From assembly GCA_031428775.1 (NCBI GenBank), contig JANOYH010000332.1:339-64338 (forward strand): a stretch of DNA of 64,000 nucleotides, written 5' to 3'. The stretch comes from Bacteroidota bacterium (lineage in GTDB: Bacteria; Bacteroidota; Bacteroidia; Chitinophagales; Chitinophagaceae). The notes beneath the pieces were generated by a model. The model saw nothing but the letters and a program-made list of their open reading frames with translations. It had not been told where the DNA came from and ran no database searches. The position numbers and the translations under genes are program-made. This document shows, one piece after another, positions 2 to 14,990 of the stretch (position 1 is the first letter of the stretch; every line of letters begins with the position of its first letter).

Positions 2-385
2 TACACCGCTTTAGGATACCCTGAAAAAGCTGCTAAATGGATAAAAATAGTATCCGATAGTATGTACAAAACAGGACAAGATGGATTAACGGGTAATGAT
101 GATTGTGGCCAAATGAGTGCTTGGTATGTGTGGACTGCATTGGGGATGTATCCAATGAATCCGGCCTCAGGTAAATATGTTTTTGGTTACCCCCTAATAA
201 AAGAAGGGACTATCCAATTGCCCAACAACAAACAATTCAGGATTCACACAAATAACAAGGGAACAAATAAAGCATCTAATAAATATGTACAGAAGGTATT
301 TCTAAATAATCGCCAAATCACCAAAGGCTATCTCACACACCAAGAATTATTAGCAGGAGGAGATTTAACTTACGAAATAAAATAA
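2..385 (+). CDS. GH92 alpha-mannosidase, C-terminal part (5' end outside window)
   Basis: Frame open from base 2 (YTALGYPEKAAKW...). Contains the GH92 C-terminal motif GNDDCGQMSAWYV..ALGMYPMNP and ends in the typical ...ELLAGGDL.Y. Confidence 0.9.
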   Translation, partial: YTALGYPEKAAKWIKIVSDSMYKTGQDGLTGNDDCGQMSAWYVWTALGMYPMNPASGKYVFGYPLIKEGTIQLPNNKQFRIHTNNKGTNKASNKYVQKVFLNNRQITKGYLTHQELLAGGDLTYEIK

Positions 386-429: not shown

Positions 430-1824
430 CTAAGACTTCCAAACCAGCCCTTTCTTTGTGAAAGGAATTGTAATAGCACAGGCAAATAGTGTGAATAAAA
501 GACCTTTCAAAAATCCCATCATAAAACTACTGTTCATTTTGTCCCAATAGTCACTGATACCTACCAAGTGCATTATAGGCAACAAGAGTAAACTTCCTGA
601 AACATATGCCATCATTGGGTTTTGTCCAGAACGTACCATAAATTGATGCATTGGCTTAAGTATAACAAATGATTGAAAAATGGCTAAAACTAGAAAACTA
701 AAAAAAGCCAGCCCCACTGACACGAAATAATAACTATATGTAGAAAAATCCTTTTTTATGCCTCCCTCATATGCTTCAAAAGTTAAACCTAGCAATAATG
801 AAAATGCGCCTGCATAAAAAAATTGCTCTACTAACTTTTTATTACTCAATACTGATTTCTTGATTACCCAATTTATAAGAACTAATCCAACTATTGAACA
901 GATAACATTTGTTACTAACTGACGAGTAAACAAAAAAATGACATTCCAGACTATAACCGAAAAAAGCAGAAAGCCAATAATTTTTAAATTCCAATTATGC
1001 TTAATTTCTAAAGAATTTAAGTCTTTAGACTGCATAAGCCAATCACCAGCTATGGTTCCTGGTAATAAAATAAACAAGTATTTGAGAAAATAAAATTTAT
1101 ACAAAGCAGCAGTAGGAGTAAGATTATATATAAATTCATTCCAACTATCAGGAATTTTTGCTCCAAAAAATATAGCCATCACAAATGGAAGAATGCCTAA
1201 CCTCAACAAAATATTATTTCTTGTAAACCACCAAATAATAGTTCCAAAAAATGCCATATTGGCTAATACAATGATGATAATATCACTACTTGATAATTTA
1301 AAACCGTCTCCATTATTCAAAGGAAGACAAACTAAACATACAAAAGCTATCAGCATAGCCGAATAATTTATTATCGTTTCATTTTTTTTAGAAGTGACAG
1401 AACTGAATTTGCTATATGCCAAAAATAGAAGTATATATCCTAATAAAGACAGGAAATAAGTTGCGTTATTGGGTATTGTTTGAATATGATTCGACTTAAA
1501 TTGTTCAAGAAACAAAGCAAAAAAAACTAAGTAGAAAAATCGTCTAAATGCAGTAATTACTACAGCTTTTTGATCATTGTTGGTTACAAATTTTTTCATC
1601 GCTATAGGAATAGCTGCACCCATACAAAAAATAAAGAAAGGAAAAACTAAGTCAACCCAAGTTATACCGGGAAGGCTAGAATTAAACTGATGATTTGGGG
1701 GAGGCACTTGAGCATGAAACATCCAAGCAGGCATCATTGGACCATAGGCAATGCTACCAGATAGAATCATGGTAAAGATGGCGTATCCGCGTAAAGCATC
1801 TAGGTTAAGGAATCTTTCTTTCAT
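430..1824 (-). CDS. DUF5009 / HGSNAT (NagX)-like multi-pass membrane acyltransferase
   Basis: N-terminal RxxxLDALRGxAIxxMIL, GITWVDLVFPFFIFCMG, IKKD..TYSY and GQNPMMAYV motifs; about 12 hydrophobic segments. Confidence 0.8.
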   Translation of the reverse strand: MKERFLNLDALRGYAIFTMILSGSIAYGPMMPAWMFHAQVPPPNHQFNSSLPGITWVDLVFPFFIFCMGAAIPIAMKKFVTNNDQKAVVITAFRRFFYLVFFALFLEQFKSNHIQTIPNNATYFLSLLGYILLFLAYSKFSSVTSKKNETIINYSAMLIAFVCLVCLPLNNGDGFKLSSSDIIIIVLANMAFFGTIIWWFTRNNILLRLGILPFVMAIFFGAKIPDSWNEFIYNLTPTAALYKFYFLKYLFILLPGTIAGDWLMQSKDLNSLEIKHNWNLKIIGFLLFSVIVWNVIFLFTRQLVTNVICSIVGLVLINWVIKKSVLSNKKLVEQFFYAGAFSLLLGLTFEAYEGGIKKDFSTYSYYFVSVGLAFFSFLVLAIFQSFVILKPMHQFMVRSGQNPMMAYVSGSLLLLPIMHLVGISDYWDKMNSSFMMGFLKGLLFTLFACAITIPFTKKGLVWKS

Positions 1825-1836
1825 ATTTATGGTATT

Positions 1837-1876
1837 AAAAAAAACAGGCCATTATGAAACATAACGCCTGCTTTTT
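1837..1876 (-). terminator. Rho-independent terminator after SusD
   Basis: Minus strand CAGGC-G-TTATG-ttt-CATAA-TG-GCCTG followed by T8. Confidence 0.7.
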
Positions 1877-1912
1877 CTGTTAAAATCCAAAATGCCAAAG
1901 TTTAAAAAGATA

Positions 1913-3694
1913 TTACCAGCCAGTGTTTTGTGTTAAGTTAGGATTGTTATCAATTTCAGATTGCGGTATAGGCCAAAGTTTATATTTAACATTGGAGTTA
2001 ACCCTTGTCTGATTTCTAAAAGCAATTCTAAGTGATACACTAGACGCATAATTAGGCACATTATCAGTATCAAAAGTTGGGATTCCAGGAACAATCAATG
2101 GGTTTAAAGCTGCTCCAACAACACTCATGCTGTTTGCTTTTCCATAAATATCCCATCTCCGCAAATCAAATAAACGCAAGCCCTCGCCTCCAAACTCAAC
2201 TGCTCTTTCTCTGCGAAGAACTGTGCGCATAGCCCCCTGAGATCCTATTGCAACAGCTGGCTGTCCCGCTCTTGCACGAACTAGATTAATAGCCGTAGTT
2301 ACTGTTGCATCAATTTCATTCAACTCAATTTTGGCTTCTGCATAGGTTTGTAGAATATCTGCATATCGCATTAAAATATATCCAACTTTTGATTCAAAAG
2401 TATATTGAGTGGTATCATTGTATTTATTCCAAACATACCCTACACCACCAATATTGCCAGTAGCACTTACCTGCCACTGAATACCTGCAGCTTGAGCACC
2501 TATCCAGTCGTTATTTGTTGTTACATTATCATAAACACCAGTATTCCAATTAAACTTCCTACGCGTATTGGAATAGAAACCAAAAATGGTTCTTTCTCTT
2601 AAATTATTATAAGGCAAAGCAGCAGTTTTAGAAGCATAATGTACCATTGTATCACCTGACATATAAATAGTCCATGCCAATCTTCGGTCTCTATTTATAC
2701 GAGGATTTGCAGGATCATACACTGTAGAAACATCAATACGATTACCGTCTCTTCCTTCATACTGATCAACCAATTGTTGAGAAGGGAAATGACTACTTTG
2801 AGAATTGGTAACCTGGCGTGGAACGCCTAAAATAGGTCCCCAATTTTGTGGTTCATTTACATCAAGCGGATAGGCTTGACTGAACATAATTTCTCTAGCA
2901 GCATTACCATTTTGTCCTGCCAAAGAAAATAGATTTTGATAACTAGGATTCAATCCATAATTACCTCCATCAATAACTGTTTTAGTTGCGGTTGCTGCGG
3001 TTGGATAGTCTTTGATTAGCATTGCTAGCTTGGCTTTCAATCCCAAGGCCACCCCTTTATTAACACGTCCAAGTGCTTGAACAGGACTAGTTCCTGCCGC
3101 ATCAAATGCTGCTGCAGCTTCATCCAAATCTTTGTACATATCAGCAACAATAATTGTTACAGGAGTTCTTGTTGCAGACAGAATGGCTTCAACCCCAGGC
3201 ATGGTTCTATAATAAGGAACAGCACCAAACCAACCCATTAAATGATAATATCCCCAAGCCCTTAAAACTAAAGCCTCCGCTTTGATCCTATTATACGTTA
3301 CTAAAGACACATTAGCTTTTCCATTTTCCATACCAGCAATTTGTTGATTGGCGCGTTGTACTAATTTATAAGCTTGATTCCAACAAGCTGTAGTAAGTGA
3401 ATTATTAATTACAAACGGCCCCCCATCTCCCATAGCAATTAAATCTTCTGCATTTGCACCTCTTTTCATAGCGAGGTCGGTACTAGATTCAATAGAAAAA
3501 GGCAAAGGCGTATTATTTCCTAAACTCCACATAGCAGAAGCATAGGTTCCTATTAAGCCTTGTTCCATTTCGGACTGATTGCTCAAAAAGGTAGAGGAAG
3601 AAGATGCATCAAGTGGTTTACGATCTAAAAATTTCTGACAACTCATCAGCGTAACTGCTGATATTGTAAGAAGTATTACGATAAATTTTTTCAT
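1913..3694 (-). CDS. susD: RagB/SusD family nutrient-binding lipoprotein
   Basis: Lipobox (TLMSC), RYADILQTYAEA, ERAVEFGGEGLRLFDLRRW, C-terminal LWPIPQSEIDNNPNLTQNTGW; directly downstream of SusC. Confidence 0.95.
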   Translation of the reverse strand: MKKFIVILLTISAVTLMSCQKFLDRKPLDASSSSTFLSNQSEMEQGLIGTYASAMWSLGNNTPLPFSIESSTDLAMKRGANAEDLIAMGDGGPFVINNSLTTACWNQAYKLVQRANQQIAGMENGKANVSLVTYNRIKAEALVLRAWGYYHLMGWFGAVPYYRTMPGVEAILSATRTPVTIIVADMYKDLDEAAAAFDAAGTSPVQALGRVNKGVALGLKAKLAMLIKDYPTAATATKTVIDGGNYGLNPSYQNLFSLAGQNGNAAREIMFSQAYPLDVNEPQNWGPILGVPRQVTNSQSSHFPSQQLVDQYEGRDGNRIDVSTVYDPANPRINRDRRLAWTIYMSGDTMVHYASKTAALPYNNLRERTIFGFYSNTRRKFNWNTGVYDNVTTNNDWIGAQAAGIQWQVSATGNIGGVGYVWNKYNDTTQYTFESKVGYILMRYADILQTYAEAKIELNEIDATVTTAINLVRARAGQPAVAIGSQGAMRTVLRRERAVEFGGEGLRLFDLRRWDIYGKANSMSVVGAALNPLIVPGIPTFDTDNVPNYASSVSLRIAFRNQTRVNSNVKYKLWPIPQSEIDNNPNLTQNTGW

Positions 3695-3716
3695 TGTAAA
3701 GATTTTACTGTTTCAG

Positions 3717-6700
3717 TTAAAAGGTTACGTTAATTCCTGCAGTATATGTTCGCATTAAAGGATAAAACTCTGCATTAGCATTATTGATTTCTGGATCAAA
3801 TCCTTTCCATGCCTTTGTGATGGTCAACAAATTGGAAGCACTCACATAGACTCTTACTGCATTAATTTTTGCTTTATCTAGCCATTGTTTTTTCAATGTG
3901 TAACCCAGATTAACATTTTTAATTCTAAAATAAGATGCACTACGAATCCACTGTGAAGCCAACAAGAAGTTATTACCACCTGAACCAGAAGGCAATAAAC
4001 GAGGAAAAGTAGCATTTTGGTTACCAGGTGTCCAATAATTTTTATGTATATCTAATAAAGAAGCTGCAAAGTCTGCACTGCTGAAAGGTACCGCGCCTGT
4101 TCCACTTAAGTAGTTGTTACGTTGACCAACACCTTGACCAAATATATTCAAATCAAAATTTGCATAAGTAAGGTTAATGTTGAAACTATATTCATAACGA
4201 GGAAAAGAATTACCAATAAATGTTCTGTCGTTGGCATCAATCTTTCCATCTCCATTCACATCTTGATATTTCACATCACCTGGCTTAGGGCCCACAGTTA
4301 ATGAAGTGTTCCAAGGTATCCCAAATTGTACGGGAGAATTTTTAATGTCTGTAGAATCACTGAAATAACCTCCAGTCATATACCCAAAATACGAACCCAG
4401 TGCTTGACCAGGTGCAGTTCTAATACCATCGCCAATAAATGGTGTTCCTTCAACCAGACTAGTTACATTGTTCTTAACATCGGAAATCATCCCAGTAATA
4501 TCTAGGCCCAATTTTCCGAATTTGTTTTTATAGTTAAGCGAAAACTCCCAACCTTTATTTTCCATATTGCCCGCATTTACAAAAGGATTGGTTAACCCGC
4601 CAGCAGACTGAGGTAATGTACGTTGTAACAACATATTTTTCAATGTCTTTACATAATAATCAGCTGTTACTGTAAAATGTTTTGCAAAAGAAACATCAAT
4701 ACCTATATCTGTTTGGTTGGAAGTTTCCCAACTTAAATCTGGGTTTGCAAATTGTAATAATGCAACTCCTAAGTTTGTACTATTTGCAAAATAAGCATTG
4801 GTTCCATTATTAGGATTACTATAATTAGACTGTGCATAGAATGCATCATATGCGTAGTTGTTACCAATACTTTGGTTGCCATTTCCACCAATTGAAGCCC
4901 TCAACTTACCAAAATCAATAAACTTTGCTTTACTTAAAAAGCTTTCTTTAGAGAAGATCCAACCGGCTGATACGGCTCCGAAATTACCCCACTGTTTATC
5001 ACCTGCTTGTGAGAAACGAGAAGTACCATCTCTTCTACCATTCAATTCTAAGAAATATTTGTCTTCATAACTATAATTCAGACGAGCAAAAAATCCTGCT
5101 AATGCCAATTCTGAAGCTCCTGCATTATTGTCTCTTACCCCAGAACCAAGATTTAAATAAGGCTGATTGGGATTATTAAATCCTGTTCTTGATGCACCAA
5201 AGAAATAGTTGGTAAATAATTCTGATTGCCCACCTAACAAAGCTTTAAACGAATGCGCACCAATTCTTTTGTTATAAGTAGCTTGGCCTAAATAAGTAGT
5301 ATAGACATTGTTAGTATATGACTCCGACAAACTTGTGGTACCAGGCCAAGAACTTAATAAAGAATACGTACCTGTTGCTATATTGGGTTGATATATATCG
5401 GCATTTGATACAAATGTTTTGGTAGTAGGATTTGTTGCTTGACGGCCCCAATAGCCTTCAATTTCTAACCCGCTAATAGGCTTATAGTTAAACCCAAACC
5501 TTGTAAGCAAAGTACTACCATTGGTCTTAGAATTTCCTGTTGCTTCAGCCATTGCTATAGGATTTCTGTTATTAGACTGACCAGCTGTTCCATACATACC
5601 AGGTCCATATTTTCCTCCACCAATTGCAGGAAGTCCAATTGCTTGTCGAATCACAAATTCAGCAGACCCTGTAGATGGATTAATGGTTTTGTTTGAGTTA
5701 TAGCCAAAAATACCAATCAAAGAAAGCTTACTATTAATCTTGAATTCAGGATTCAAACGAATATCATATTTTTCAAAACTACTATTAGGAATTAACCCCT
5801 GCTGTTTCAAAAAAGTAAAAGAAGAAAATAAATTTATCTTATCAGTTGAAGTAGATAACTGTATGTTATGATTTTGTAGCATTCCGCTATTAGTCAAAAC
5901 TTCATTCAACCAATCGGTATCAATAACATCTAAATTGTTAGCTGGAGTTGTTTTATACTTATCAATCAGCGACTGAGGATAAACTGTAGCTAATGGATTT
6001 CCAGTTCGGTTTTGTTCTGCTACGTTACTTAGTGTCATGTGATCAATTGCATTCACTCGATCAGGTATAGCTGTTGCAGATTGTTTAGATACAAAAGCGT
6101 TGTAGCTTAACTTTAATCCTTTTTCGGTTGCTCTTTTTGTTTTAACCAAAACTACTCCACCAGAAGCACGATTACCATAAATAGCTGTAGAAGCTGCATC
6201 TTTTAATAGGGTAATACTTTCAATTGCATTGGGATCAATTTGATCTAAGGAACCAATTGCTAATCCGTCTACAATAATTAATGGCGCACTGCTTCCTGAT
6301 ATCGAACCTTGTCCACGTATAATAATACTAGCACCATCTGCACCCGGTTTACCAGATTGTTGTTGAACAGTAACCCCAGGGGCCAACCCTTGTAAAGCTT
6401 GACTGGTACTGGTAACTTGGCGCCTATTTAAAGTAGCGTTATTCAATGTTACTAATGAGCCTGTTAAACTGGCTTTTTTCTGTGCGCCATAACCCACAAC
6501 AACTACTTCACCCATATCACCCACCGTAATTTGCAACAGAACATCTAATGTTGAACCATTCACTTTTATTTCTTGAGTAGCAAATCCAATGCCGGAAAAA
6601 ACAAGTATTGCAGACTTGTCCACCAGAATGCTATATTCACCTGCAGCACTGGTGGCAGTTCCAGCTTTAGCACCTTTTACCAATACTGATATTCCTTCAG

Positions 6701-6812
6701 CAGCATTTCCAGAACCTGCACTGGTAACTCTTCCCGCAACCCTAACTTGTTGCGCTACTGCACTACCAATAATCATTAGTAGTAAACAGCACGAGAGCAA
6801 TAATTTTTTCAT
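3717..6812 (-). CDS. susC: SusC/RagA family TonB-dependent transporter
   Basis: Signal peptide, CarboxypepD_reg-like N domain, EVVVVGYG, plug motif IESITLLKDAASTAIYGNRASGGVVLVKTK, LSWETS, C-terminal F. Confidence 0.96.
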   Translation of the reverse strand: MKKLLLSCCLLLMIIGSAVAQQVRVAGRVTSAGSGNAAEGISVLVKGAKAGTATSAAGEYSILVDKSAILVFSGIGFATQEIKVNGSTLDVLLQITVGDMGEVVVVGYGAQKKASLTGSLVTLNNATLNRRQVTSTSQALQGLAPGVTVQQQSGKPGADGASIIIRGQGSISGSSAPLIIVDGLAIGSLDQIDPNAIESITLLKDAASTAIYGNRASGGVVLVKTKRATEKGLKLSYNAFVSKQSATAIPDRVNAIDHMTLSNVAEQNRTGNPLATVYPQSLIDKYKTTPANNLDVIDTDWLNEVLTNSGMLQNHNIQLSTSTDKINLFSSFTFLKQQGLIPNSSFEKYDIRLNPEFKINSKLSLIGIFGYNSNKTINPSTGSAEFVIRQAIGLPAIGGGKYGPGMYGTAGQSNNRNPIAMAEATGNSKTNGSTLLTRFGFNYKPISGLEIEGYWGRQATNPTTKTFVSNADIYQPNIATGTYSLLSSWPGTTSLSESYTNNVYTTYLGQATYNKRIGAHSFKALLGGQSELFTNYFFGASRTGFNNPNQPYLNLGSGVRDNNAGASELALAGFFARLNYSYEDKYFLELNGRRDGTSRFSQAGDKQWGNFGAVSAGWIFSKESFLSKAKFIDFGKLRASIGGNGNQSIGNNYAYDAFYAQSNYSNPNNGTNAYFANSTNLGVALLQFANPDLSWETSNQTDIGIDVSFAKHFTVTADYYVKTLKNMLLQRTLPQSAGGLTNPFVNAGNMENKGWEFSLNYKNKFGKLGLDITGMISDVKNNVTSLVEGTPFIGDGIRTAPGQALGSYFGYMTGGYFSDSTDIKNSPVQFGIPWNTSLTVGPKPGDVKYQDVNGDGKIDANDRTFIGNSFPRYEYSFNINLTYANFDLNIFGQGVGQRNNYLSGTGAVPFSSADFAASLLDIHKNYWTPGNQNATFPRLLPSGSGGNNFLLASQWIRSASYFRIKNVNLGYTLKKQWLDKAKINAVRVYVSASNLLTITKAWKGFDPEINNANAEFYPLMRTYTAGINVTF

Positions 6813-6827
6813 AAGCGTTCGTTTTGT

Positions 6828-8753
6828 TTAATTGTATGTCTGTTTAAATAATCCTTTGTGGTCTACATCCATTTTTTCAAAAGGATGCAAAGTTTCATCC
6901 AGTAGTTTGGCAAACTGAATTCTAGTTAAAGCCTTTTTGAAGTTTAATTCTCCAAAATTCCAAATTGGCCATTCTTTGGATACCTTCCTTTTCAATGTTT
7001 CGAAACTGGGTTCTTTTTGGGAAACCCCTTGGTTTTTTTTTGCAAGGATGCTTGATATTTGGACAATTGTTTTCAGTGCATCATTGATTGAAAATAATTT
7101 CTGCTTAATATTAAAAGAAGTATTGAATATGGCATCAAGATCCCTAGATAATTCAATGCCATTGATGGTTGAATCTGGATAAAAAAAGGTTTGATTGGCC
7201 CAATTATTTGGCACGCCTTTCCCTTTTAAAATATCTGTAGCGCCTATTTTCTGAATAGCTAGAAAATGTGGATTAGAAAGTGGGACATCAAAATATGGCA
7301 TAATATAAGCGCCAGAAAGCAATAAATTTTTCTGAACATTTCTGATAGATATTTCATTTGCATTTTTATTTTCCTGAATAGCAAGTGCCGCAAGTGTTCC
7401 AGCTGCTTGTCCAATTAATAATACACTAGGTTGCAAACGAGTAGTGCCATTCACAATATTTGAAACGCTAATACCTTTTTCAGCAATAATCAACCCCTTA
7501 AAAGATGGAGGTATTAATGATCCAAGAGGAATATTAAAAGAAGGAACGGGGTAGAAATCTAAGTGTTGAGGGGCATTTGGATTTTTTTTGTGGTGATGAT
7601 CTATGGGATAATCACCAACAGCTATTCCAGTTCTATTTAGATGCAAGTTGCCAGAAAAAGGTTCAGCGATATGCTTGATATTAAAACGAACGATTCCTTT
7701 AACCCTTCTTCCTTCTCTATAATAAGGAATGAGTGGAAAACGATCGATGGTAGGAAACTCATCATCAGCAAATCCCAGGTTTTTAAACCCTAATTGATGC
7801 TGTATAAAATATACAAATCGGAGTGTTTGTTCTTTTGCTTTAAGCAATTCTTTTTGCCTTCCTGCCTCATCCATTTCAACTATATTGAGGTAAATATCAT
7901 TACCATAACCTGGCCAATTGATCATGTATTTGTGATTAGGCAATTTACCATAATCCAACATTTTCTTTGCATCAACAGTAGGCGCTTTTCTAGATTTGTC
8001 TAAATAATAATCTGAACATGCACCATCAAATTCGCGCGGATCATATCCTAACGGTTTTGCAATTGTACAATCCTTCGCAATGCCATAATCCTTCAATATT
8101 GCAGTATAAGTAATATCCTGTACTATATCATTGGAAAATAATACGCCCACATTTTCACCTGAAACTACACTTGCTTCCATTCCTAAATCATATGGAACGC
8201 CAGCATTAGCAAATACATCACCCAGTTCAGTTGCATCAATTGTTTGCTTGGCAAAAATGGTAATAGATGTTTTGTTCAGTTTATTAATAAAAATAGCTCC
8301 TAGAATCTTATTTTGTTCTTTAACAACTTTTGAGAATTGGAGATTATATAAAACCTGAATTGAGGGAACAGCTAAAACTAATTTTTTAAATATGCTATCC
8401 CCTATTCTTGGCTCAAACAAAGTATTGCTAACCCAACCAGTTGCTACCTTACTCGGACCACCATACACTTCATACAATTTGTTTCTAAACTCCCCAAAAA
8501 TACCAGAGGGCATATTATTATTTCCGTCAAATGCGGATACACCTGCAGCAGTTATCATGCCCCCAAGCCAGGTGGTAGGTTCGGCAATAATTGTTTTTAC
8601 ACCCAGTCTTCCCGCTTGCAATCCAGCAGCTACACCACTTGCACCACCACCAATGACTAATACATCTGTATGAAATGTTTGCGCATAACTAGTACAGACT
8701 GAAATCAGCAATAGCAGGACAACAAAAAAATAATATCGTAGATTTTTAGTCAA
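6828..8753 (-). CDS. Exported FAD-dependent oxidoreductase (FAD_oxidored-like) with SLH-like C-terminal region
   Basis: Sec-type signal (..SVCTSYA/Q), DVLVIGGGASGVAAG dinucleotide-binding motif, IDATELGD, PYYREGRR, RLQPSVLLIGQAAG; tail FDVPLSNPHFLAIQKIGATDILKG...LTRIQFAKLL. Confidence 0.85.
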   Translation of the reverse strand: MTKNLRYYFFVVLLLLISVCTSYAQTFHTDVLVIGGGASGVAAGLQAGRLGVKTIIAEPTTWLGGMITAAGVSAFDGNNNMPSGIFGEFRNKLYEVYGGPSKVATGWVSNTLFEPRIGDSIFKKLVLAVPSIQVLYNLQFSKVVKEQNKILGAIFINKLNKTSITIFAKQTIDATELGDVFANAGVPYDLGMEASVVSGENVGVLFSNDIVQDITYTAILKDYGIAKDCTIAKPLGYDPREFDGACSDYYLDKSRKAPTVDAKKMLDYGKLPNHKYMINWPGYGNDIYLNIVEMDEAGRQKELLKAKEQTLRFVYFIQHQLGFKNLGFADDEFPTIDRFPLIPYYREGRRVKGIVRFNIKHIAEPFSGNLHLNRTGIAVGDYPIDHHHKKNPNAPQHLDFYPVPSFNIPLGSLIPPSFKGLIIAEKGISVSNIVNGTTRLQPSVLLIGQAAGTLAALAIQENKNANEISIRNVQKNLLLSGAYIMPYFDVPLSNPHFLAIQKIGATDILKGKGVPNNWANQTFFYPDSTINGIELSRDLDAIFNTSFNIKQKLFSINDALKTIVQISSILAKKNQGVSQKEPSFETLKRKVSKEWPIWNFGELNFKKALTRIQFAKLLDETLHPFEKMDVDHKGLFKQTYN

Positions 8754-8767
8754 GTTTCATTTTGCTT

Positions 8768-9961
8768 CTATAATGATTCTAATGTTTTCCAGACCTGAAA
8801 TAGTGAACGTGGAATATGAAAACAACCTTTCCATTTTCCACCTTTTAATGGCAGTAATACTTCCCCTCTTCTATTCAAGTAACCAAACCATTCCTCGCAT
8901 TCTTTATCTTTGAAATGGCTCCAGGTATAATCATGTATCTTTTTGAACCAAGTAGCACAACGCTCATCTTTGGTTAAAGCATAAGCCTTAGCTAATGCAA
9001 CCAAAGCTTCTACATGAACCCACCAAAGTTTTTGGTCCCATTCTAATTGTTGGGTAGGATGTCCTTTCACGTCTAAGAAATAAAATATTCCACCAAATTC
9101 TTTATCCCAACCAAACGCTAAAGTATCGAGCATAATGTTGGTGGCTTTTTCTATAAGAGCCGTATCGTTGATTCTTTTACCTAGATCCATGATAAACCAC
9201 ATAGCCTCAATAGCATGCCCAGGGTTGAGCAATCGGCCTTCGAAACTATCGCAGAAAGAACCATCTTCATATACGTTTTCCAATACTAGACCAAGGTCTG
9301 GTTGATAAAACACCTCCATCACTTCTTCAACTATTTCTGGAATAAATTCATTAACTCGTTTCTCTCCTAATAAATGTTCTAGTTCTAAGGACAGATTGCA
9401 TAAAATCATTGGCAAACTGAATGACTTTAGTGACCTAGTTCCTGGAAAGTTTTTGTTGTATTTCCCCTTAGTATTTTTTCGCCTAGCAAGAATATTTTCA
9501 AATGTGTCTAAGGCAATTTTTTTGTATTCATCAGAAGGAGAAACTTTATCTAGCGCTGCAAATGCCATAGTTGCAAAACAATCACTAAAAATATTATAGG
9601 GTTGAATAAGTGGCTTTCCATCAGCCGTTAAAGAAAAATACCAGTTACCATTTTCGTCTCTACCATGCTTTTGCATGAACTCAGCTCCGTTTTTTGCAGC
9701 TTCAAGCCATGCCTCATTTGGTTCAACATTTTTGTACATGAAAGCAAAACACCAAACCTGTCGTCCTTGTAACCAGATAAACTTATCAGTATCGTACACC
9801 TTTCCAAATTGGTCAAGACAAGTAAAAAATCCTCCATTTACTTTATCAATGCTATTATTCAACCAAAATGGTAGAATACCTTGCAATAATTCATTTTTAT
9901 ATTGTTCAGCATAGCTTTTCAAAGCATTTATAGGTTCCCCAATTGCAATAGTCGTGAGCAT
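8768..9961 (-). CDS. AGE-family N-acylglucosamine 2-epimerase
   Basis: GGFFTCLD, DKFIWLQGRQVW, NPGHAIEAMWF, QKLWWVHVE, GGKWKGCFHIPR. Confidence 0.93.
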   Translation of the reverse strand: MLTTIAIGEPINALKSYAEQYKNELLQGILPFWLNNSIDKVNGGFFTCLDQFGKVYDTDKFIWLQGRQVWCFAFMYKNVEPNEAWLEAAKNGAEFMQKHGRDENGNWYFSLTADGKPLIQPYNIFSDCFATMAFAALDKVSPSDEYKKIALDTFENILARRKNTKGKYNKNFPGTRSLKSFSLPMILCNLSLELEHLLGEKRVNEFIPEIVEEVMEVFYQPDLGLVLENVYEDGSFCDSFEGRLLNPGHAIEAMWFIMDLGKRINDTALIEKATNIMLDTLAFGWDKEFGGIFYFLDVKGHPTQQLEWDQKLWWVHVEALVALAKAYALTKDERCATWFKKIHDYTWSHFKDKECEEWFGYLNRRGEVLLPLKGGKWKGCFHIPRSLFQVWKTLESL

Positions 9962-10129
9962 GAAGTCTTATTTAAGTTTTTAATGGACATTCTTAAATTG
10001 ACTGTAATATCATAAATTTTATTATAAACTCATAAAAACTTTCTAATTATTTTTATTTATTAAGAATTTTTGAAGTTGAATTTTATTAATATGACTAAAT
10101 TGTAGGTTCATTGTAGCTATTTTTAACAG

Positions 10130-11362
10130 ATGTCAAAGACTCATATAATTAAAGATGTTTTTAGTGACGACAACTCTTCAGGGGTTGCACTTAAGAATAA
10201 AGCACTTAAAAAACTGATTTTCAAGCTTTTAGATCAAACAGACGTTAGCTCCATCACTGAATTGAGCAAAGAATTGCTCATTAGTGTGCCTAAAACTACC
10301 AGCCTAGTTAATGAATTAATTGACGAAGGCATGATCAAAGACTATGGTAAAATTGATTCTACAGGTGGCAGAAAGGCTAGTATGTATGGATTAGTTTCAG
10401 ATGCATGCTTTTTCATTGGGGTGGATGTAAAAAAATACTATATCAATATTGGATTGTTGAATTTTAAAAAACAACTGGTAACACAAAAAAACAGAATCCC
10501 ATATAAATTAGAAAATACACAAGAATCACTTACCCAATTGATTCAAATTATACAGGGTTTTATAAAAGAACAGTCAGTAAAGAAAGACAAGATCTTGAGC
10601 ATAGCAATTAATCTATCGGGTAGAATTAAAAATACCATTGGTTATAGTTTTAGTTTTTTCCACTTTCAAGAAGAGCCATTATCAATTATCATTCAAAACG
10701 AAATTGGGATTAAAACATTTTTAGAAAATGATTCTAGAGCAATGGCTTTCGGTGAATGCAATTTTGGAGATGTTAACTCTGAAAAGAATGTTTTATTTGT
10801 AAACATAGATTACGGCATAGGTTTAGGAATTCTAATTAATAGTGAAATATATTATGGCAAATCCGGATTTAGTGGTGAGTTTGGCCATATTCGTTTTTTT
10901 GACAATGAAATCATTTGTCATTGCGGTAAAAAAGGATGTTTAGAAACAGAAGCATCTGGAAATGCTTTAGTAAGAAAATTTAAAGAAAAAATTGAAAATG
11001 GATCTACTTCTATCATAGTAAAGAAAAATAAATCGCTTGATAATATAACCCTTACAGATATTATTCAAGCTGCAAAAGCTGAAGACGTTTTGTGCATTGA
11101 ATTATTAGCTGAAGTTGGAGAAAAACTAGGTATGGGATTGGCTGCTATGATCAACGTTTTCAATCCAGAATTAATTATTTTAGGTGGAACACTTTCTGAA
11201 ACAGGCGATTTTTTAAGGCTACCTATCAGAAGCGCCATCAATAAATATTCTTTGAGCTTGGTTAACTCAGATACAGAACTTAGACTATCTAAACTAGGTG
11301 AAAAAGCAGGTATACTTGGAGCCTGTTTGATTGCTAGAAATAAAGTATTATCGGTTATTTAA
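10130..11362 (+). CDS. ROK family transcriptional regulator (NagC/XylR-like)
   Basis: N-terminal HTH (SITELSKELLISVPKTTSLVNEL), ENDSRA, GFSGEFGH, CHCGKKGCLETEAS; divergent from the AGE operon. Confidence 0.93.
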   Translation: MSKTHIIKDVFSDDNSSGVALKNKALKKLIFKLLDQTDVSSITELSKELLISVPKTTSLVNELIDEGMIKDYGKIDSTGGRKASMYGLVSDACFFIGVDVKKYYINIGLLNFKKQLVTQKNRIPYKLENTQESLTQLIQIIQGFIKEQSVKKDKILSIAINLSGRIKNTIGYSFSFFHFQEEPLSIIIQNEIGIKTFLENDSRAMAFGECNFGDVNSEKNVLFVNIDYGIGLGILINSEIYYGKSGFSGEFGHIRFFDNEIICHCGKKGCLETEASGNALVRKFKEKIENGSTSIIVKKNKSLDNITLTDIIQAAKAEDVLCIELLAEVGEKLGMGLAAMINVFNPELIILGGTLSETGDFLRLPIRSAINKYSLSLVNSDTELRLSKLGEKAGILGACLIARNKVLSVI

Positions 11363-11403: not shown

Positions 11404-12882
11404 TTATACTATATGAAGATTTAAGGTATTTAACCATTCATGATACAATCCTTGATAAAGCGCAACCTTTGTTGGTTCTATAATAGCGATGGATTGATGT
11501 ATAGTGCCTGCTTCTTCCGCTGAAGCATAATATTTAACACCAATGCCTGCGCCTTTTGCAGCACCTACACTACCGTCGGCATCATATAATTCCACAGGAA
11601 CGCCAATTACATTCACAAAGGTTTCGGTGAATACCTTGCTTAAAAACATATTTGCCTTTCCAGCTCTGATGGTAGTTGGTCGCATGCCATTTGATTGCAT
11701 AATATCAAAACCATATTTAAAAGCAAATGCGATACCTTCTTGTGCAGCTCTGAAGAAATGTGGCGCACTATGTTTATTTAGGTCGATGTTTTCAAAATGT
11801 GCCCCAACAATTTTGTTGTTGAAAATTCTTTCTGCACCATTACCAAATGGCAATACGTGAAGCCCGTCACTACCTGCGTTAATAGTTTCCGCTTGTACAT
11901 CAAATTCTTTATAGGAAAGCGATTTGCCAGCCATTTGCTTTACATAACGATTCATGATGCCAGTTCCGTTGATACATAACAGCACACCGGTTCTAGTTTT
12001 TTCTGCCGTATGATTGACGTGCGCAAAACTATTTAACCTTGATTGCTGGTCAAAAACCAACTGATCCGCCACCCCATAAATAACGCCTGAAGTACCTGCT
12101 GTTGCTGCTACTTCCCCCGCATTCAATACATTTAAGGATAATGCATTATTGGGTTGGTCGCCTGCTTTATAAGTAACAGGTATGCCTTCTTTTAATCCTA
12201 ATTCAGCAGCCACTTTTTGGGAGACTTTCCCATGCTCACTGAACACATCTTGAATAGTTGGGAAGATTTTTTTATCGAATCCAAAATAGTTCAACACATC
12301 TGTAGAAAGCGCATTGGTGGTAAAGTCCCAGAAAATCCCTTCCGATAAAGAAGAGGCTGAAGTAGTGGTTGTATCTGTTAATTTAAAAGCAATAAAATCG
12401 CCAGGCAATAAGATCTTATCAATTTTTTGATACACTTCAGGTTCATGTTCTTTAACCCAAGCTAATTTTGCTGCTGTAAAATTTCCAGGAGAATTTAGTA
12501 GGTGCGTTAAACATTTTGCTTTACCAATTGTTTCAAAAGCGGCATCGCCATAAGAAACGGCCCTACTATCGCACCAAATAATACTATTTCTCAAAGTATT
12601 CCCATTCTGATCAATCAACACCAATCCGTGCATTTGGTAGGCAATGCCGATTGCACCAATATCTTGGGGATCATATTTTCCAGTAGCATTTGATTTTTTG
12701 ATGGCTGCCTGTACATCGCTCCACCATTGCTCTGGAGATTGTTCAGCCCATCCAGTTTGAAGAGAGATGATCTCAGATTCTGTTTCAGGATACTGTGCAG
12801 AAGAAATCGTTTTTTGCGTTGCTGCATCCATAACAGAAACCTTGATAGATGAAGTGCCTAAGTCTATACCTAATAATAACAT
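11404..12882 (-). CDS. xylB: Xylulokinase (FGGY family)
   Basis: LGIDLGTSSIK, IIWCDSR, AGDQPNNA, GTSGV; clustered with xylA. Confidence 0.92.
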   Translation of the reverse strand: MLLLGIDLGTSSIKVSVMDAATQKTISSAQYPETESEIISLQTGWAEQSPEQWWSDVQAAIKKSNATGKYDPQDIGAIGIAYQMHGLVLIDQNGNTLRNSIIWCDSRAVSYGDAAFETIGKAKCLTHLLNSPGNFTAAKLAWVKEHEPEVYQKIDKILLPGDFIAFKLTDTTTTSASSLSEGIFWDFTTNALSTDVLNYFGFDKKIFPTIQDVFSEHGKVSQKVAAELGLKEGIPVTYKAGDQPNNALSLNVLNAGEVAATAGTSGVIYGVADQLVFDQQSRLNSFAHVNHTAEKTRTGVLLCINGTGIMNRYVKQMAGKSLSYKEFDVQAETINAGSDGLHVLPFGNGAERIFNNKIVGAHFENIDLNKHSAPHFFRAAQEGIAFAFKYGFDIMQSNGMRPTTIRAGKANMFLSKVFTETFVNVIGVPVELYDADGSVGAAKGAGIGVKYYASAEEAGTIHQSIAIIEPTKVALYQGLYHEWLNTLNLHIV

Positions 12883-12950
12883 GAGTCAAAATTTTATTCC
12901 CTTTGCAATACTCGCTTAACTGCTGCAATATATTCCATTTAAAAAATATA

Positions 12951-13604
12951 TTATGCAAACTTTTTTGCGTCTTCTAAAAATTTTGCTAACCCAATATCGG
13001 TCAAAGGATGATTTAATAAACCAAGAATTGAATCAAGTGGACAGGTACAAACATCTGCACCAGCTTCTGCACATTTCACAATATGCAAAGCATTGCGAAT
13101 GGATGCAGCAAGAATTTCAGATTTAAATCCTTGTATAGAATAGATCTGCGCAATTTGTGCAATCAATTCAACACCATCCCAACTACTATCGTCTATTCTT
13201 CCAATAAAGGGTGAAATATACGTAGCGCCTGCTTTTGCGGCAAGGATGGCTTGACCGGCCGAGAAAATCAATGTACAGTTAGTTTTGATACCATTATCTG
13301 TAAACCATTTGATGGCTTTAATACCGTCTTTGATCATGGGTACTTTCACCACAATATTTGGATGTATGGTAACTAATTTTTTCCCTTCTTCTATTATTCC
13401 TGTAAAATCTGTTGAAATTACTTCGGCACTGATATCGCCATCAACCATTTCGCAAATGATTTTATAATGCTGCATCACAGCTGCTTGGCCTTTGATGCCT
13501 TCTTTTGCCATTAAGGATGGATTGGTAGTAACTCCATCTAAAATTCCCAGATCATTTGCTTCTTTGATTTGATCAAGGTTTGCTGTGTCGATAAAAAATT
13601 TCAT
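12951..13604 (-). CDS. tal: Transaldolase, small (FSA-like) type
   Basis: FFIDTAN, GVTTNPS, Schiff-base VVKVP. SAEV (Glu) and SPF (Phe) residues are transaldolase-type rather than FSA-type (Gln/Tyr). Confidence 0.88.
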   Translation of the reverse strand: MKFFIDTANLDQIKEANDLGILDGVTTNPSLMAKEGIKGQAAVMQHYKIICEMVDGDISAEVISTDFTGIIEEGKKLVTIHPNIVVKVPMIKDGIKAIKWFTDNGIKTNCTLIFSAGQAILAAKAGATYISPFIGRIDDSSWDGVELIAQIAQIYSIQGFKSEILAASIRNALHIVKCAEAGADVCTCPLDSILGLLNHPLTDIGLAKFLEDAKKFA

Positions 13605-13620
13605 TATTGATTTTTTAAAT

Positions 13621-13652
13621 TAAAAACGGGGTGCGTTTTATCGTACCCCGTT
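13621..13652 (-). terminator. Stem-loop/terminator between xylA and tal
   Basis: Minus strand AACGGGGTACG-ataaaa-CGCACCCCGTT followed by TTT. Confidence 0.65.
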
Positions 13653-13661
13653 ACTATTATT

Positions 13662-14990
13662 TTAAATAAATTTGTTCACAATATTTTCGAAGTATTCTTG
13701 TTTTCCACTGGTTGTTTTCGGCTCTCCGTTTTCAACCGCGTAAGTTCTAAGCTCTTCCAGTGTTAATTCTCCTAATTCATACTTTCTTCCAACGCCTGTA
13801 TCGAAGGAAGCATAACGATTTAAGCGTTGTTGTTTATAGTCAGATTTTTGCAAAATATTATCTGCTGCCACCAATGCTCTTGCAAATGTGTCTATGCCTC
13901 CAATATGTGCATGGAATAAGTCCGACATATCTGTTGAGTTTCTTCTGATCTTTGCATCAAAATTTATTCCACCTCCGCCAAAACCACCTGCTTCCACAAT
14001 AATCAACATGGCCTCTGTGATATCATTGAGGTTATTGGGGAATTGATCCGTATCCCATCCATTTTGTGCATCGCCTCTATTCGCATCCATTGAACCCAGC
14101 ATACCAGCGTCTACAGCTACTTGTAACTCGTGTTGGAAGGTATGTCCAGCTAAAGTTGCGTGGTTCACTTCAATATTTAATTTGAAGTCGTTCAACAAAT
14201 CATATTGGCGAAGGAAGCCAATCACCGTTTCACTATCATAATCGTATTGGTGTTTGGTTGGCTCGCAAGGTTTGGGTTCAATGAAGAAAGTTCCTTTGAA
14301 TCCATTTTTTCTAGCATAGTCTTTTGCAGTATGTAAGAATTTTGCCAGATGTTCTTTTTCGCGTTTCATATTGGTATTGAGCAAAGACATATAGCCTTCT
14401 CTTCCACCCCAGAATACATAGTTCTCTCCATTTAATGCAATGGTAGCATCAATGGCCCCTTTAACTTGAGCTGCTGCATGAGAGAGCACATGGAAATTAG
14501 GGTTGGTAGAGGCCCCATTCATATACCTTCTATTACTGAATACGTTGGCGGTACCCCATAAAAGTTTAACACCACTAGCATCTTGCTTTTGCTTTAGATA
14601 GGCAGTTAATTCTTGTAAACGCTTGTCGTTATCGTCAACATCATTGGTATAGTCAACCACATCCACATCATGAAAACAATAATAAGGCAATCCCAATTTT
14701 GTGATGAATTCAAAAGCTGCGTCTGCTTTATCCTTGGCTCTTGCAATAGCGTCGGCATGTTCATTCCATGGATGAATCTGTGTAGGCTCGCCAAAAGGAT
14801 CGCTACCATTACCCACAAATGAATGCCAATAAGCCACTGCAAAACGCAACCACTCTTTCATTGTTTTACCTGCTACTACTTTGGTCTCATCATACCAGCG
14901 ATAGGCTAAGGGATTATCGCTCTCTACTCCTTCAAACTTAATTTGAGGAATTCCTTTAAAAAATTCTTTCTCTCCTAGTAAAACTGACAT
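13662..14990 (-). CDS. xylA: Xylose isomerase (class II)
   Basis: RFAVAYWH, FHDVD, FWGGREGY, FIEPKPCEP, NIEVNHATLAGH, GWDTDQFP. Confidence 0.98.
   Translation of the reverse strand: MSVLLGEKEFFKGIPQIKFEGVESDNPLAYRWYDETKVVAGKTMKEWLRFAVAYWHSFVGNGSDPFGEPTQIHPWNEHADAIARAKDKADAAFEFITKLGLPYYCFHDVDVVDYTNDVDDNDKRLQELTAYLKQKQDASGVKLLWGTANVFSNRRYMNGASTNPNFHVLSHAAAQVKGAIDATIALNGENYVFWGGREGYMSLLNTNMKREKEHLAKFLHTAKDYARKNGFKGTFFIEPKPCEPTKHQYDYDSETVIGFLRQYDLLNDFKLNIEVNHATLAGHTFQHELQVAVDAGMLGSMDANRGDAQNGWDTDQFPNNLNDITEAMLIIVEAGGFGGGGINFDAKIRRNSTDMSDLFHAHIGGIDTFARALVAADNILQKSDYKQQRLNRYASFDTGVGRKYELGELTLEELRTYAVENGEPKTTSGKQEYFENIVNKFI

Follow-up and report, generated by a model that had tools for sequence, protein, structure and literature searches.

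A conserved SusC/D-linked amino-sugar locus of Bacteroidota with an exported, SLH-like flavoprotein and a possible role in scavenging cell-wall glycopolymers

In polysaccharide utilization loci of the Sus paradigm, a tandem susC/susD pair is flanked by genes for exported enzymes that act on glycans, together with a sugar transporter of the inner membrane and a regulator encoded nearby. The same components make up the locus described here, which occupies positions 430 to 11,362 of a 64,000-nucleotide stretch (the window) from a Chitinophagaceae bacterium (assembly GCA_031428775.1; 368 contigs, 3.77 Mb, 95.6% complete), and which extends beyond it. The window corresponds to positions 339-64338 of contig C332 (JANOYH010000332.1). 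In contrast to Sus-paradigm loci, the regulator is a NagC-type ROK protein and not an HTCS, ECF or SusR protein, most of the enzymes fall outside the classified glycoside hydrolases (GHL10, DUF4434, a PF12831 flavoprotein and DUF5009), and versions of the module without SusC/D exist. We are confident that the locus represents a conserved and co-regulated module that is linked to SusC/D, serves the use of an N-acetylhexosamine-containing glycan and consists largely of uncharacterized protein families. More specifically, and with a probability of roughly 0.45, we propose that it scavenges a bacterial cell-wall glycopolymer containing N-acetylmannosamine, N-acetylglucosamine or glucosamine (ManNAc/GlcNAc/GlcN).

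Other described systems share parts of the locus. The nanLET clusters of Bacteroides and the nan and mur clusters of Tannerella also contain an epimerase of the N-acyl-D-glucosamine 2-epimerase (AGE) type, a ROK regulator, MFS or AmpG-type permeases, esterases and a SusC/D-like importer; unlike them, the present locus is devoid of NanL or NanA lyase, sialidase, MurK and MurQ, and has an exported flavoprotein as well as GHL10 and DUF4434 proteins. Cwp19 of C. difficile, the only GHL10 relative from cell-wall metabolism that has been characterized, is a peptidoglycan lytic transglycosylase (PMC6016235). The S-layer-homology (SLH) domains of proteins such as B. anthracis Sap and P. alvei SpaA bind the pyruvylated ManNAc of secondary cell-wall polymers, and known domains of this type tether S-layer or outer-membrane proteins to the wall of the producing cell. 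Five bacteria depend for their use of glucosamine on NagX proteins, which belong to the same superfamily as DUF5009 and have been proposed to N-acetylate periplasmic GlcN with cytoplasmic acetyl-CoA, and a DUF5009 relative, MurT of Tannerella forsythia, has been described as a transporter of N-acetylmuramic acid (MurNAc) (PMC9007349). For DUF5009 proteins, no function has been confirmed by experiment (PMC12423673).

The features of the locus within the window are the following.

2..385, plus strand: last 127 residues (C-terminus) of a GH92 alpha-mannosidase, convergent on DUF5009 (Pfam PF07971, E 2e-41)
430..1824, minus strand: DUF5009/HGSNAT-like polytopic membrane protein (PF16401, E 3.4e-91)
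1838..1876, minus strand: terminator-like hairpin, then U8, in the gap between susD and DUF5009 (RNA fold -19.2 kcal/mol, z = -5.0)
1913..3694, minus strand: SusD-family outer-membrane lipoprotein (PF07980, E 3.5e-42; PF14322)
3717..6812, minus strand: SusC/RagA TonB-dependent transporter (TIGR04056, 799 bits versus a cut-off of 368)
6828-8753, minus strand: whole flavoprotein gene, PF12831 FAD_oxidored, 641 residues (E 1.4e-88)
6831..7322, minus strand: SLH-like C-terminal domain of the flavoprotein, residues 478-641 (Foldseek; motif LTRIQFAKLLD at residue 609)
7323..8753, minus strand: signal peptide (1-24, ending SYAQ) and PF12831 domain (30-477) of the flavoprotein (PF12831; AlphaFold2, AF2)
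8768..9961, minus strand: N-acyl-D-glucosamine 2-epimerase, AGE (NF052547 equivalog, 671.9 bits versus 600; PF07221, E 2e-75)
10040..10064, minus strand: operator-like AT-rich element CTTAATAAATAAAAATAATTAGAAA, common to the MFS/GHL10 intergenic region on contig C213
10130..11362, plus strand: NagC/Mlc-type ROK regulator, divergent from the AGE operon (PF00480, E 2e-56, and HTH_24)

The open reading frame listing and profile searches placed AGE, the FAD oxidoreductase, SusC, SusD, DUF5009 and the divergent ROK gene where an original prediction, made from the letters of the window alone, had put them. The predicted spacing of 14-22 bp between the first four genes on one strand was measured as 14 bp for AGE/FAD, 15 bp for FAD/SusC and 22 bp for SusC/SusD, and the adjacent susC and susD genes lie on the same strand (TIGR04056, PF07980). 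DUF5009 follows SusC/D on that strand as predicted, at a distance of 88 bp from susD. This gap contains a strong hairpin with a U8 tract after it (none of 200 shuffled sequences folds as stably). DUF5009 is therefore less tightly coupled than the other four minus-strand genes, and it may be expressed by read-through or independently.

The left end of the locus is hidden by an assembly break. Only 338 bp of contig C332 remain to the left of the window, and the contig start falls within the GH92 gene. On a second contig, C213 (4,147 bp), we found the gene of an AmpG-like MFS protein, a GHL10 gene divergent from it and the codons of GH92 residues 1-486; the end of C213 is identical over 13 bases to the start of C332, on which GH92 resumes from residue 483. 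A third contig, C136, carries a 5'-truncated SGNH esterase gene, a DUF4434 gene and a second GHL10 gene. No sequence overlap was found for a join of C213 and C136, and the C136 genes are thus placed by analogy: C136 probably continues the locus after MFS, because SGNH, DUF4434 and GHL10 directly follow MFS in the related loci L048 and L063. The same arrangement is found on long contigs of close relatives (L001, L002, L024, L025, L045-L048, L058, L091), and in relatives GH92, GHL10, MFS and DUF4434 directly adjoin the locus. The interval in the window is therefore the regulator-proximal half of a SusC/D-type glycan utilization locus of about 20 kb with at least three transcription units. In the first, ROK is divergent from AGE-flavoprotein-SusC-SusD-(DUF5009). 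The second, GHL10-GH92, converges on DUF5009. The third, divergent from GHL10-GH92, starts with the AmpG-like MFS and probably continues with SGNH esterase-DUF4434-GHL10.

The original prediction had described a hydrolase-free unit, which is true inside the window only. Beyond the break, the locus is linked to glycan-degrading enzymes, namely GH92 and a GHL10 protein on C213, and probably DUF4434, the second GHL10 protein and the SGNH esterase on C136. Inspection of the contig left of the first base, which the prediction had recommended as a search for more carbohydrate-active enzymes, thus led via C213 to the remainder of GH92 and to GHL10. Whether GH92 belongs to the locus had been left undecided; it does, as supported by synteny and by the shared cis element described below. 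The prediction had also allowed that dedicated hydrolases just outside the window would make this an ordinary N-glycan locus. Such hydrolases are indeed present, but an ordinary N-glycan locus was not borne out. A general caution follows for similar work, as enzymes "missing" at a contig edge should not be taken as biology.

In order to assess conservation, we searched 301 evenly sampled genomes of the phylum for the flavoprotein, and found it in 21 of them (7%). Neighborhoods were compiled for 20 of the 21 sampled carriers and for 80 named loci (L numbers) from a flavoprotein profile search, and neighbors were counted in those 42 named loci that have at least 8 kb on both sides. Among the 42 loci, the flavoprotein was accompanied by SusC in 31, ROK in 28, SusD in 27, GHL10 in 22, AGE in 20, an MFS, SSF or sugar-porter transporter in 18, DUF5009 in 17, GH92 in 10, DUF4434 in 6 and an SGNH esterase in 5 cases. 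In the full set of 80, AGE was present in 40 loci, usually directly adjoining the flavoprotein. Further recurrent neighbors were calcineurin-like phosphoesterases, NAGPA-type phosphodiester glycosidases, DUF5017/DUF5018 surface proteins, GH18, GH97 and NagB-PIG-L fusions. AGE and DUF5009 are each single-copy in the genome of the window, so that a co-location within some 20 kb would arise by chance with a probability of about 0.5%.

The set recurs, with rearranged order, in Chitinophagaceae, Pedobacter, Sphingobacterium, Niastella, Parapedobacter and Dysgonomonas. Pedobacter petrophilus LMG 29686, Niastella soli, Sphingobacterium haloxyli and Dysgonomonas hofstadii DSM 104969 are carriers that exist in culture. 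Joint recurrence of ROK, AGE, flavoprotein, SusC/D and DUF5009 across Bacteroidota had been proposed as a test of the original prediction, and the prediction passed it. Versions without SusC/D (L071, L079, L105, L123) show the order flavoprotein-(DUF5009)-transporter-(SGNH)-DUF4434-AGE-(GHL10). The SusC/D proteins of distant loci share no more than 22-31% identity with the pair in the window, versus 55-78% for AGE. From the shuffled order and the divergence of SusC/D compared to the conservation of AGE, we conclude that ROK, AGE and the flavoprotein form the conserved core, and that hydrolase-like enzymes, transporter and DUF5009 form a variable shell.

Individual loci deserve mention. In Dysgonomonas hofstadii (L089, 558-16790), two GHL10-DUF4985 proteins, GH97, two calcineurin-like phosphoesterases, ROK, flavoprotein, DUF4434 and a sugar porter are encoded together with a Tat-exported Gfo/Idh/MocA oxidoreductase and a xylose-isomerase-like TIM protein, the latter two resembling a 3-keto-glycoside pathway. 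A host-associated-looking Bacteroidales genome that consists of a single 4.87-Mb contig (L034, 1-15445) carries ROK, flavoprotein, DUF4434, sugar porter, AGE and SusC/D. In Sediminibacterium sp. C3 and S. salmoneum (L050-L052), the genes next to the flavoprotein code for a SIR2-like protein and an S9 peptidase, and ROK, AGE and SusC/D are missing, which shows that the enzyme can also be kept without the rest of the module. To the right of the locus in the window, xylulokinase, fructose-6-phosphate aldolase and xylose isomerase genes (11404-14990) directly follow ROK on the opposite strand. They were considered as members of the unit and rejected, as they belong with adjacent xylan genes and have no counterpart at this place in relatives.

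Co-regulation is suggested by a shared cis element, which was found by aligning the ROK/AGE intergenic regions of relatives and comparing them with GHL10/MFS intergenic regions. The search pattern CT[TA]A[AGT]T[AT]AA-W(3-9)-[AT]TTANAAA has only two matches in the 3.77-Mb genome, at window positions 10040-10064 and at C213:1455. Both are AT-rich elements of 21-25 nt, and they coincide with the two divergent promoter regions of the locus. In 1.39 Mb of loci of relatives (80 loci), there were 18 matches, of which 10 lie upstream of AGE, 7 in GHL10/MFS or contig-cut GHL10 upstream regions and 1 elsewhere, although this count is partly circular, since the pattern was derived in part from sequences that were later counted. 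The two contexts of the element, AGE promoter and GHL10/MFS region, are not homologous to each other. The element is a likely candidate for the ROK operator, and its restriction to the two divergent promoter regions in the genome suggests that GH92, GHL10 and the MFS operon share one regulon with the AGE operon. The regulator itself has the HTH_24 plus ROK architecture, and is NagC-like without being an equivalog (NagC 208 bits versus a cut-off of 650, Mlc 194 versus 530).

Two other leads were discarded. Enumeration of gapped palindromes as ROK operators returned AT-rich noise only, and a match to a relaxed pattern at C21:6207 was discounted as probably due to chance, as it overlaps a terminator-like hairpin. 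The C21 match precedes genes for an exported 548-residue protein and a NagB-PIG-L fusion (6323-9683).

The flavoprotein matches PF12831 over the full length of the model (positions 1-416 of 416). Its hydrophobic leader ends in SYAQ directly before a GGGASG dinucleotide motif (GxGxxG dinucleotide fold), and nearly all homologs start with a hydrophobic leader that has AQ or a lipobox at its end, while a few have Tat-like RR signals. In view of these leaders, the possibility of a cytoplasmic enzyme was rejected. An AF2 model from an alignment of 48 sequences reached a pLDDT of 92. Foldseek matched the whole model to generic two-domain flavoproteins in the PDB (geranylgeranyl reductase, FrdA/SdhA, urocanate reductase, PHBH-type monooxygenases), with TM scores of at most 0.5 and 10-15% identity. 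As only generic folds were matched, no function can be transferred. A sequence search against the PDB covered the FAD-binding N-terminus only (best E 1.5e-5) and found no characterized close relative. The charged clusters RESRR, GDYPIDHH and TTRLQ are invariant in the homologs and would suit an anionic substrate.

The family comprises more than 7,000 sequence clusters. A literature search on PF12831 found nothing relevant, and no paper in the library searched connects a flavoprotein of this clade with both SusC/D and an AGE epimerase in one locus, in agreement with the earlier view that components of the system are uncharacterized. An exported flavoprotein without characterized structural relative and with a C-terminus modeled as SLH-like, in a SusC/D locus with an AGE epimerase, would thus be new. 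Two homologs of about 30% identity (L040:5907-7715 and L041:5919-7727) have a twin-arginine-like leader, MNRRSFLQSS, in place of the Sec-type leader, which fits export of a cofactor-loaded enzyme; they are devoid of most of the SLH-like tail.

The C-terminal 164 residues of the flavoprotein (478-641) have the size of a three-repeat SLH domain. Folded alone by AF2 (pLDDT 89.5), they gave as Foldseek top match the SLH domain of B. anthracis Sap (3pyw; probability 0.89, TM 0.46/0.43, E 0.06). Other SLH entries (6cwh, 7sv5, 6bt4, 6cwn) had TM scores of 0.35-0.48, the highest in the list, and the sole other full-length fold matches were SLH domains of P. alvei SpaA and Sap, with 4,6-pyruvyl-ManNAc ligands according to the PDB titles. 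Pfam SLH (PF00395) was the top family for the homologous C-termini, with matches to 9 of 50 (best E 1.4e-5), and a PDB profile match to an SLH protein was weak (E 0.2). The segment carries motifs of the FxDV...GI..G...F.P and TRxE-like types, which resemble those of SLH domains. The latter reads LTRIQFAKLLD here and ITRAELAVLLD, ITRLEFAVMLD and similar in homologs; its Arg is nearly invariant (at least 90%), whereas Thr and Glu vary. The ManNAc theme of SLH ligands is also matched, as AGE is encoded beside the flavoprotein. Unlike known SLH domains, the segment forms part of an exported flavoenzyme that a catabolic locus encodes, its host phylum rarely has SLH proteins, and the similarity is weak. 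On balance, the models and motifs make a true SLH-type domain probable.

For DUF5009, a profile of the first 120 residues matches human HGSNAT structures (8vkj, 8jkv, 8tu9; E 1e-6). As in HGSNAT, which like NagX belongs to the TmAT superfamily, an N-terminal DxxR motif, a following His and a VDLVFPxF helix are present, and D9, R12, His37 and the helix VDLVFPFF are invariant in 21 homologs. His37 (WMFHAQ) lies where HGSNAT has YFKHAS with the acetyl-carrying His297; HMMER instead aligns His297 after an insert of 11 residues that follows the His of DUF5009 and distinguishes it from HGSNAT. A further difference from HGSNAT and NagX is the location in a SusC/D locus behind a terminator-like hairpin. 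A PDB search with the single sequence gave spurious matches to PPR repeats, which are still listed in full-length profile searches. Together, these features make DUF5009 a candidate for a transmembrane N-acetyltransferase, with a permease of the MurT type as the alternative. The originally predicted N-acetylation step at the inner membrane is plausible in view of the HGSNAT profile match and the invariant DxxR and His37, and agrees with the proposal for NagX (PMC9007349).

GHL10 (PF02638, E 1.3e-61), encoded in three copies in the genome, matches the catalytic domain of Cwp19 (5oq2, E 6e-13) at low identity, and has Golvesin_C, DUF4985 and type-9 secretion tails where Cwp19 has CWB2 repeats. 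The type-9 tails, found on some GHL10 proteins of relatives, imply an extracellular site of action for these. For DUF4434, the PDB match is 4h41, which comes from structural genomics and is labeled "putative alpha-L-fucosidase"; no activity was found for 4h41, and no substrate for DUF4434 or the flavoprotein clade. The DUF4434 protein of L034 is nearly identical to 4h41, so that a solved structure exists for one member of the module. The MFS protein has AmpG as its best family, and is the only AmpG-like gene product detected in the 95.6%-complete genome; MurQ and AnmK are encoded elsewhere. The AGE protein scores far below the cut-offs of cellobiose 2-epimerase and mannose isomerase models, and is expected to be cytoplasmic because it has no signal peptide.

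An amino-sugar theme thus runs through the equivalog-level AGE, the NagC/Mlc-like ROK, the HGSNAT-matching DUF5009 and the NagB-PIG-L and GH18 neighbors. Within this theme, AGE makes ManNAc the clue that is most specific for the substrate. N-glycans and chitin are free of ManNAc, and the sialic-acid route would require a lyase, which is absent. In secondary cell-wall polymers and teichoic linkage units, ManNAc-GlcNAc is attached to MurNAc via a phosphodiester, and such wall polymers are often pyruvylated, O-acetylated or partly de-N-acetylated (PMC6801904 and established knowledge). Wall glycopolymers are the best fit for the occurrence of ManNAc together with an SLH-like domain, a Cwp19-like enzyme, an AmpG-like permease, an N-acetyltransferase-like protein and an O-acyl esterase. 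NAGPA and calcineurin-like phosphoesterases in relatives also fit phosphodiester-linked wall polymers. The most likely substrate would be a peptidoglycan-attached secondary cell-wall polymer or teichoic-type material with ManNAc.

Starting from the gene identities, the assembly join, the conserved gene set, the cis element common to both promoter regions, the SLH-like fold of the flavoprotein C-terminus and the HGSNAT-like motifs of DUF5009, we infer a substrate, enzyme activities and an order of steps as follows. The NagC-type ROK repressor probably keeps the units off via the shared AT-rich operator until an amino-sugar product appears. GHL10-type enzymes would fragment an N-acetylhexosamine-rich polymer, and the fragments would be imported through SusC/D. 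In the periplasm, GH92, DUF4434, the second GHL10 protein and the SGNH esterase would trim mannose, other sugars and O-acyl groups, and the exported flavoprotein, docked on the glycan via its SLH-like domain, would remove or convert a substituent that blocks hydrolysis. DUF5009 might re-N-acetylate free amino groups (GlcN or mannosamine, ManN) with cytoplasmic acetyl-CoA, as proposed for NagX and HGSNAT. The product would be imported by the AmpG-like MFS, or by an SSF symporter or sugar porter in relatives, and AGE would turn ManNAc into GlcNAc for the NagA/NagB route.

Several observations weigh against this proposal. GH92, GH18 and NAGPA also suit eukaryotic mannoproteins or N-glycans. A Deinococcus GHL10 protein has been reported to be active on starch (PMC9967864), and sequence similarity does not settle the activity of GHL10 here. 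The MFS is AmpG-like only, as its TIGR00901 score is far below the cut-off (114 bits versus 350, determined for a protein of a relative that is 76% identical to the C213 gene). The C-terminus of the flavoprotein in the window has no Pfam SLH match, its motif contains TRIQ instead of TRAE, and the Foldseek E-value mentioned above is modest. DUF5009, separated by the hairpin from the other genes, is absent in the close relatives L002, L047 and L048. Finally, the C213 part of GH92 contains an in-frame TAA at about 3220 (…TTEGM*QQVDK…, with * for the stop), which would be either a sequencing error or a pseudogene, reflecting either point errors in the assembly or decay of several glycan genes. The partial circularity of the element count has to be added to these points.

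A narrower form of the wall polymer proposal, which we consider unlikely, is that the locus is dedicated to eating SLH-ligand polymers, i.e. the pyruvylated ManNAc-GlcNAc wall polymers of Firmicutes, cyanobacteria and relatives. The flavoprotein would then grip 4,6-pyruvyl-ManNAc with a borrowed SLH domain, and its flavin domain would strip or open the pyruvate ketal, possibly by means of a transient oxidation that turns the oxygen of the ketal into a leaving group. GHL10 and DUF4434 would cut the backbone, DUF5009 would re-acetylate de-N-acetylated residues, and AGE would convert ManNAc to GlcNAc. A study from 2026 stated that the enzymatic basis of depyruvylation is not resolved (PMC13750104), and for this reason the SLH-like flavoprotein can be named as a candidate for this activity, albeit a doubtful one.

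Among the alternatives to a wall polymer, a locus for eukaryotic mannoproteins or N-glycans survives best, although we regard it as rather unlikely. GH92 would trim alpha-mannose, DUF4434, GHL10 and GH18 would cut the core, NAGPA and phosphoesterases would uncover phosphodiester-capped mannose, GlcNAc would be taken up, and AGE and the flavoprotein would be accessory. The synteny of GH92 in close relatives, the presence of GH18 beside the flavoprotein in L027, L030 and L062, and NAGPA and Metallophos proteins in some loci are in favor of this alternative. Yet N-glycans contain no ManNAc, while AGE, in half of the 80 loci, is among the most frequent partners of the flavoprotein; GH92 was found in only 14 and GH18 in 1 of the 80 loci, and no GH20, GH2 or GH130 was among the recurrent neighbor families annotated. 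The SLH-like domain and the AmpG-like permease would be left unexplained.

The pathway of the original prediction, in which GlcN or chitosan oligomers are imported, modified by periplasmic redox chemistry, N-acetylated by DUF5009 and epimerized by AGE without dedicated hydrolases, appears decidedly unlikely. The role of NagX-type proteins in glucosamine use in five bacteria (PMC9007349), the HGSNAT motifs kept in DUF5009 and the NagC-like ROK would all be in line with it. However, hydrolase-like genes are inside the conserved module, and the three relatives without DUF5009 keep everything else. Moreover, AGE acts on N-acetylated sugars, and GlcNAc catabolism needs no epimerization.

Scavenging of nonulosonic acids is very improbable. 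AGE, SGNH esterase, SSF or MFS transporters and ROK are classic companions of Bacteroidetes nan clusters, and all are found in the module, where SGNH would de-O-acetylate, SSF/MFS would import and AGE would convert ManNAc. The flavoprotein, DUF4434 or GHL10 would then have to stand in for the sialidase and lyase steps, since the module has no DHDPS/NanA lyase (the three DHDPS paralogs of the genome lie elsewhere, and homologs are absent from the 80 loci) and no GH33 sialidase was among the annotated recurrent neighbor families. The match of SusD to NanU was also negligible (E 7e-5, 22 bits versus a cut-off of 425). Least probable of all is a locus mainly for turnover or recycling of the organism's own envelope glycans, as the SusC/D importer and the type-9-tailed GHL10 proteins point to an external substrate and a flavoprotein in only 7% of sampled Bacteroidota is not housekeeping, even if the single AmpG-like gene and the MurQ and AnmK genes elsewhere would suit such a role.

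The proposed operator and ligand have practical consequences. The candidate ROK operator could be used as a reporter for inducer screening, and the SLH-like domain beside a ManNAc epimerase points to pyruvylated ManNAc oligosaccharides as a ligand to consider. The combination of GHL10, DUF4434 and DUF5009 is a recurrent one in Bacteroidota from soil, freshwater and gut. If the substrate is a bacterial cell-wall glycopolymer, as we propose, the module would represent a widespread recycling route for the amino sugars of necromass, and this route would include lysozyme-resistant, N-deacetylated or substituted walls.

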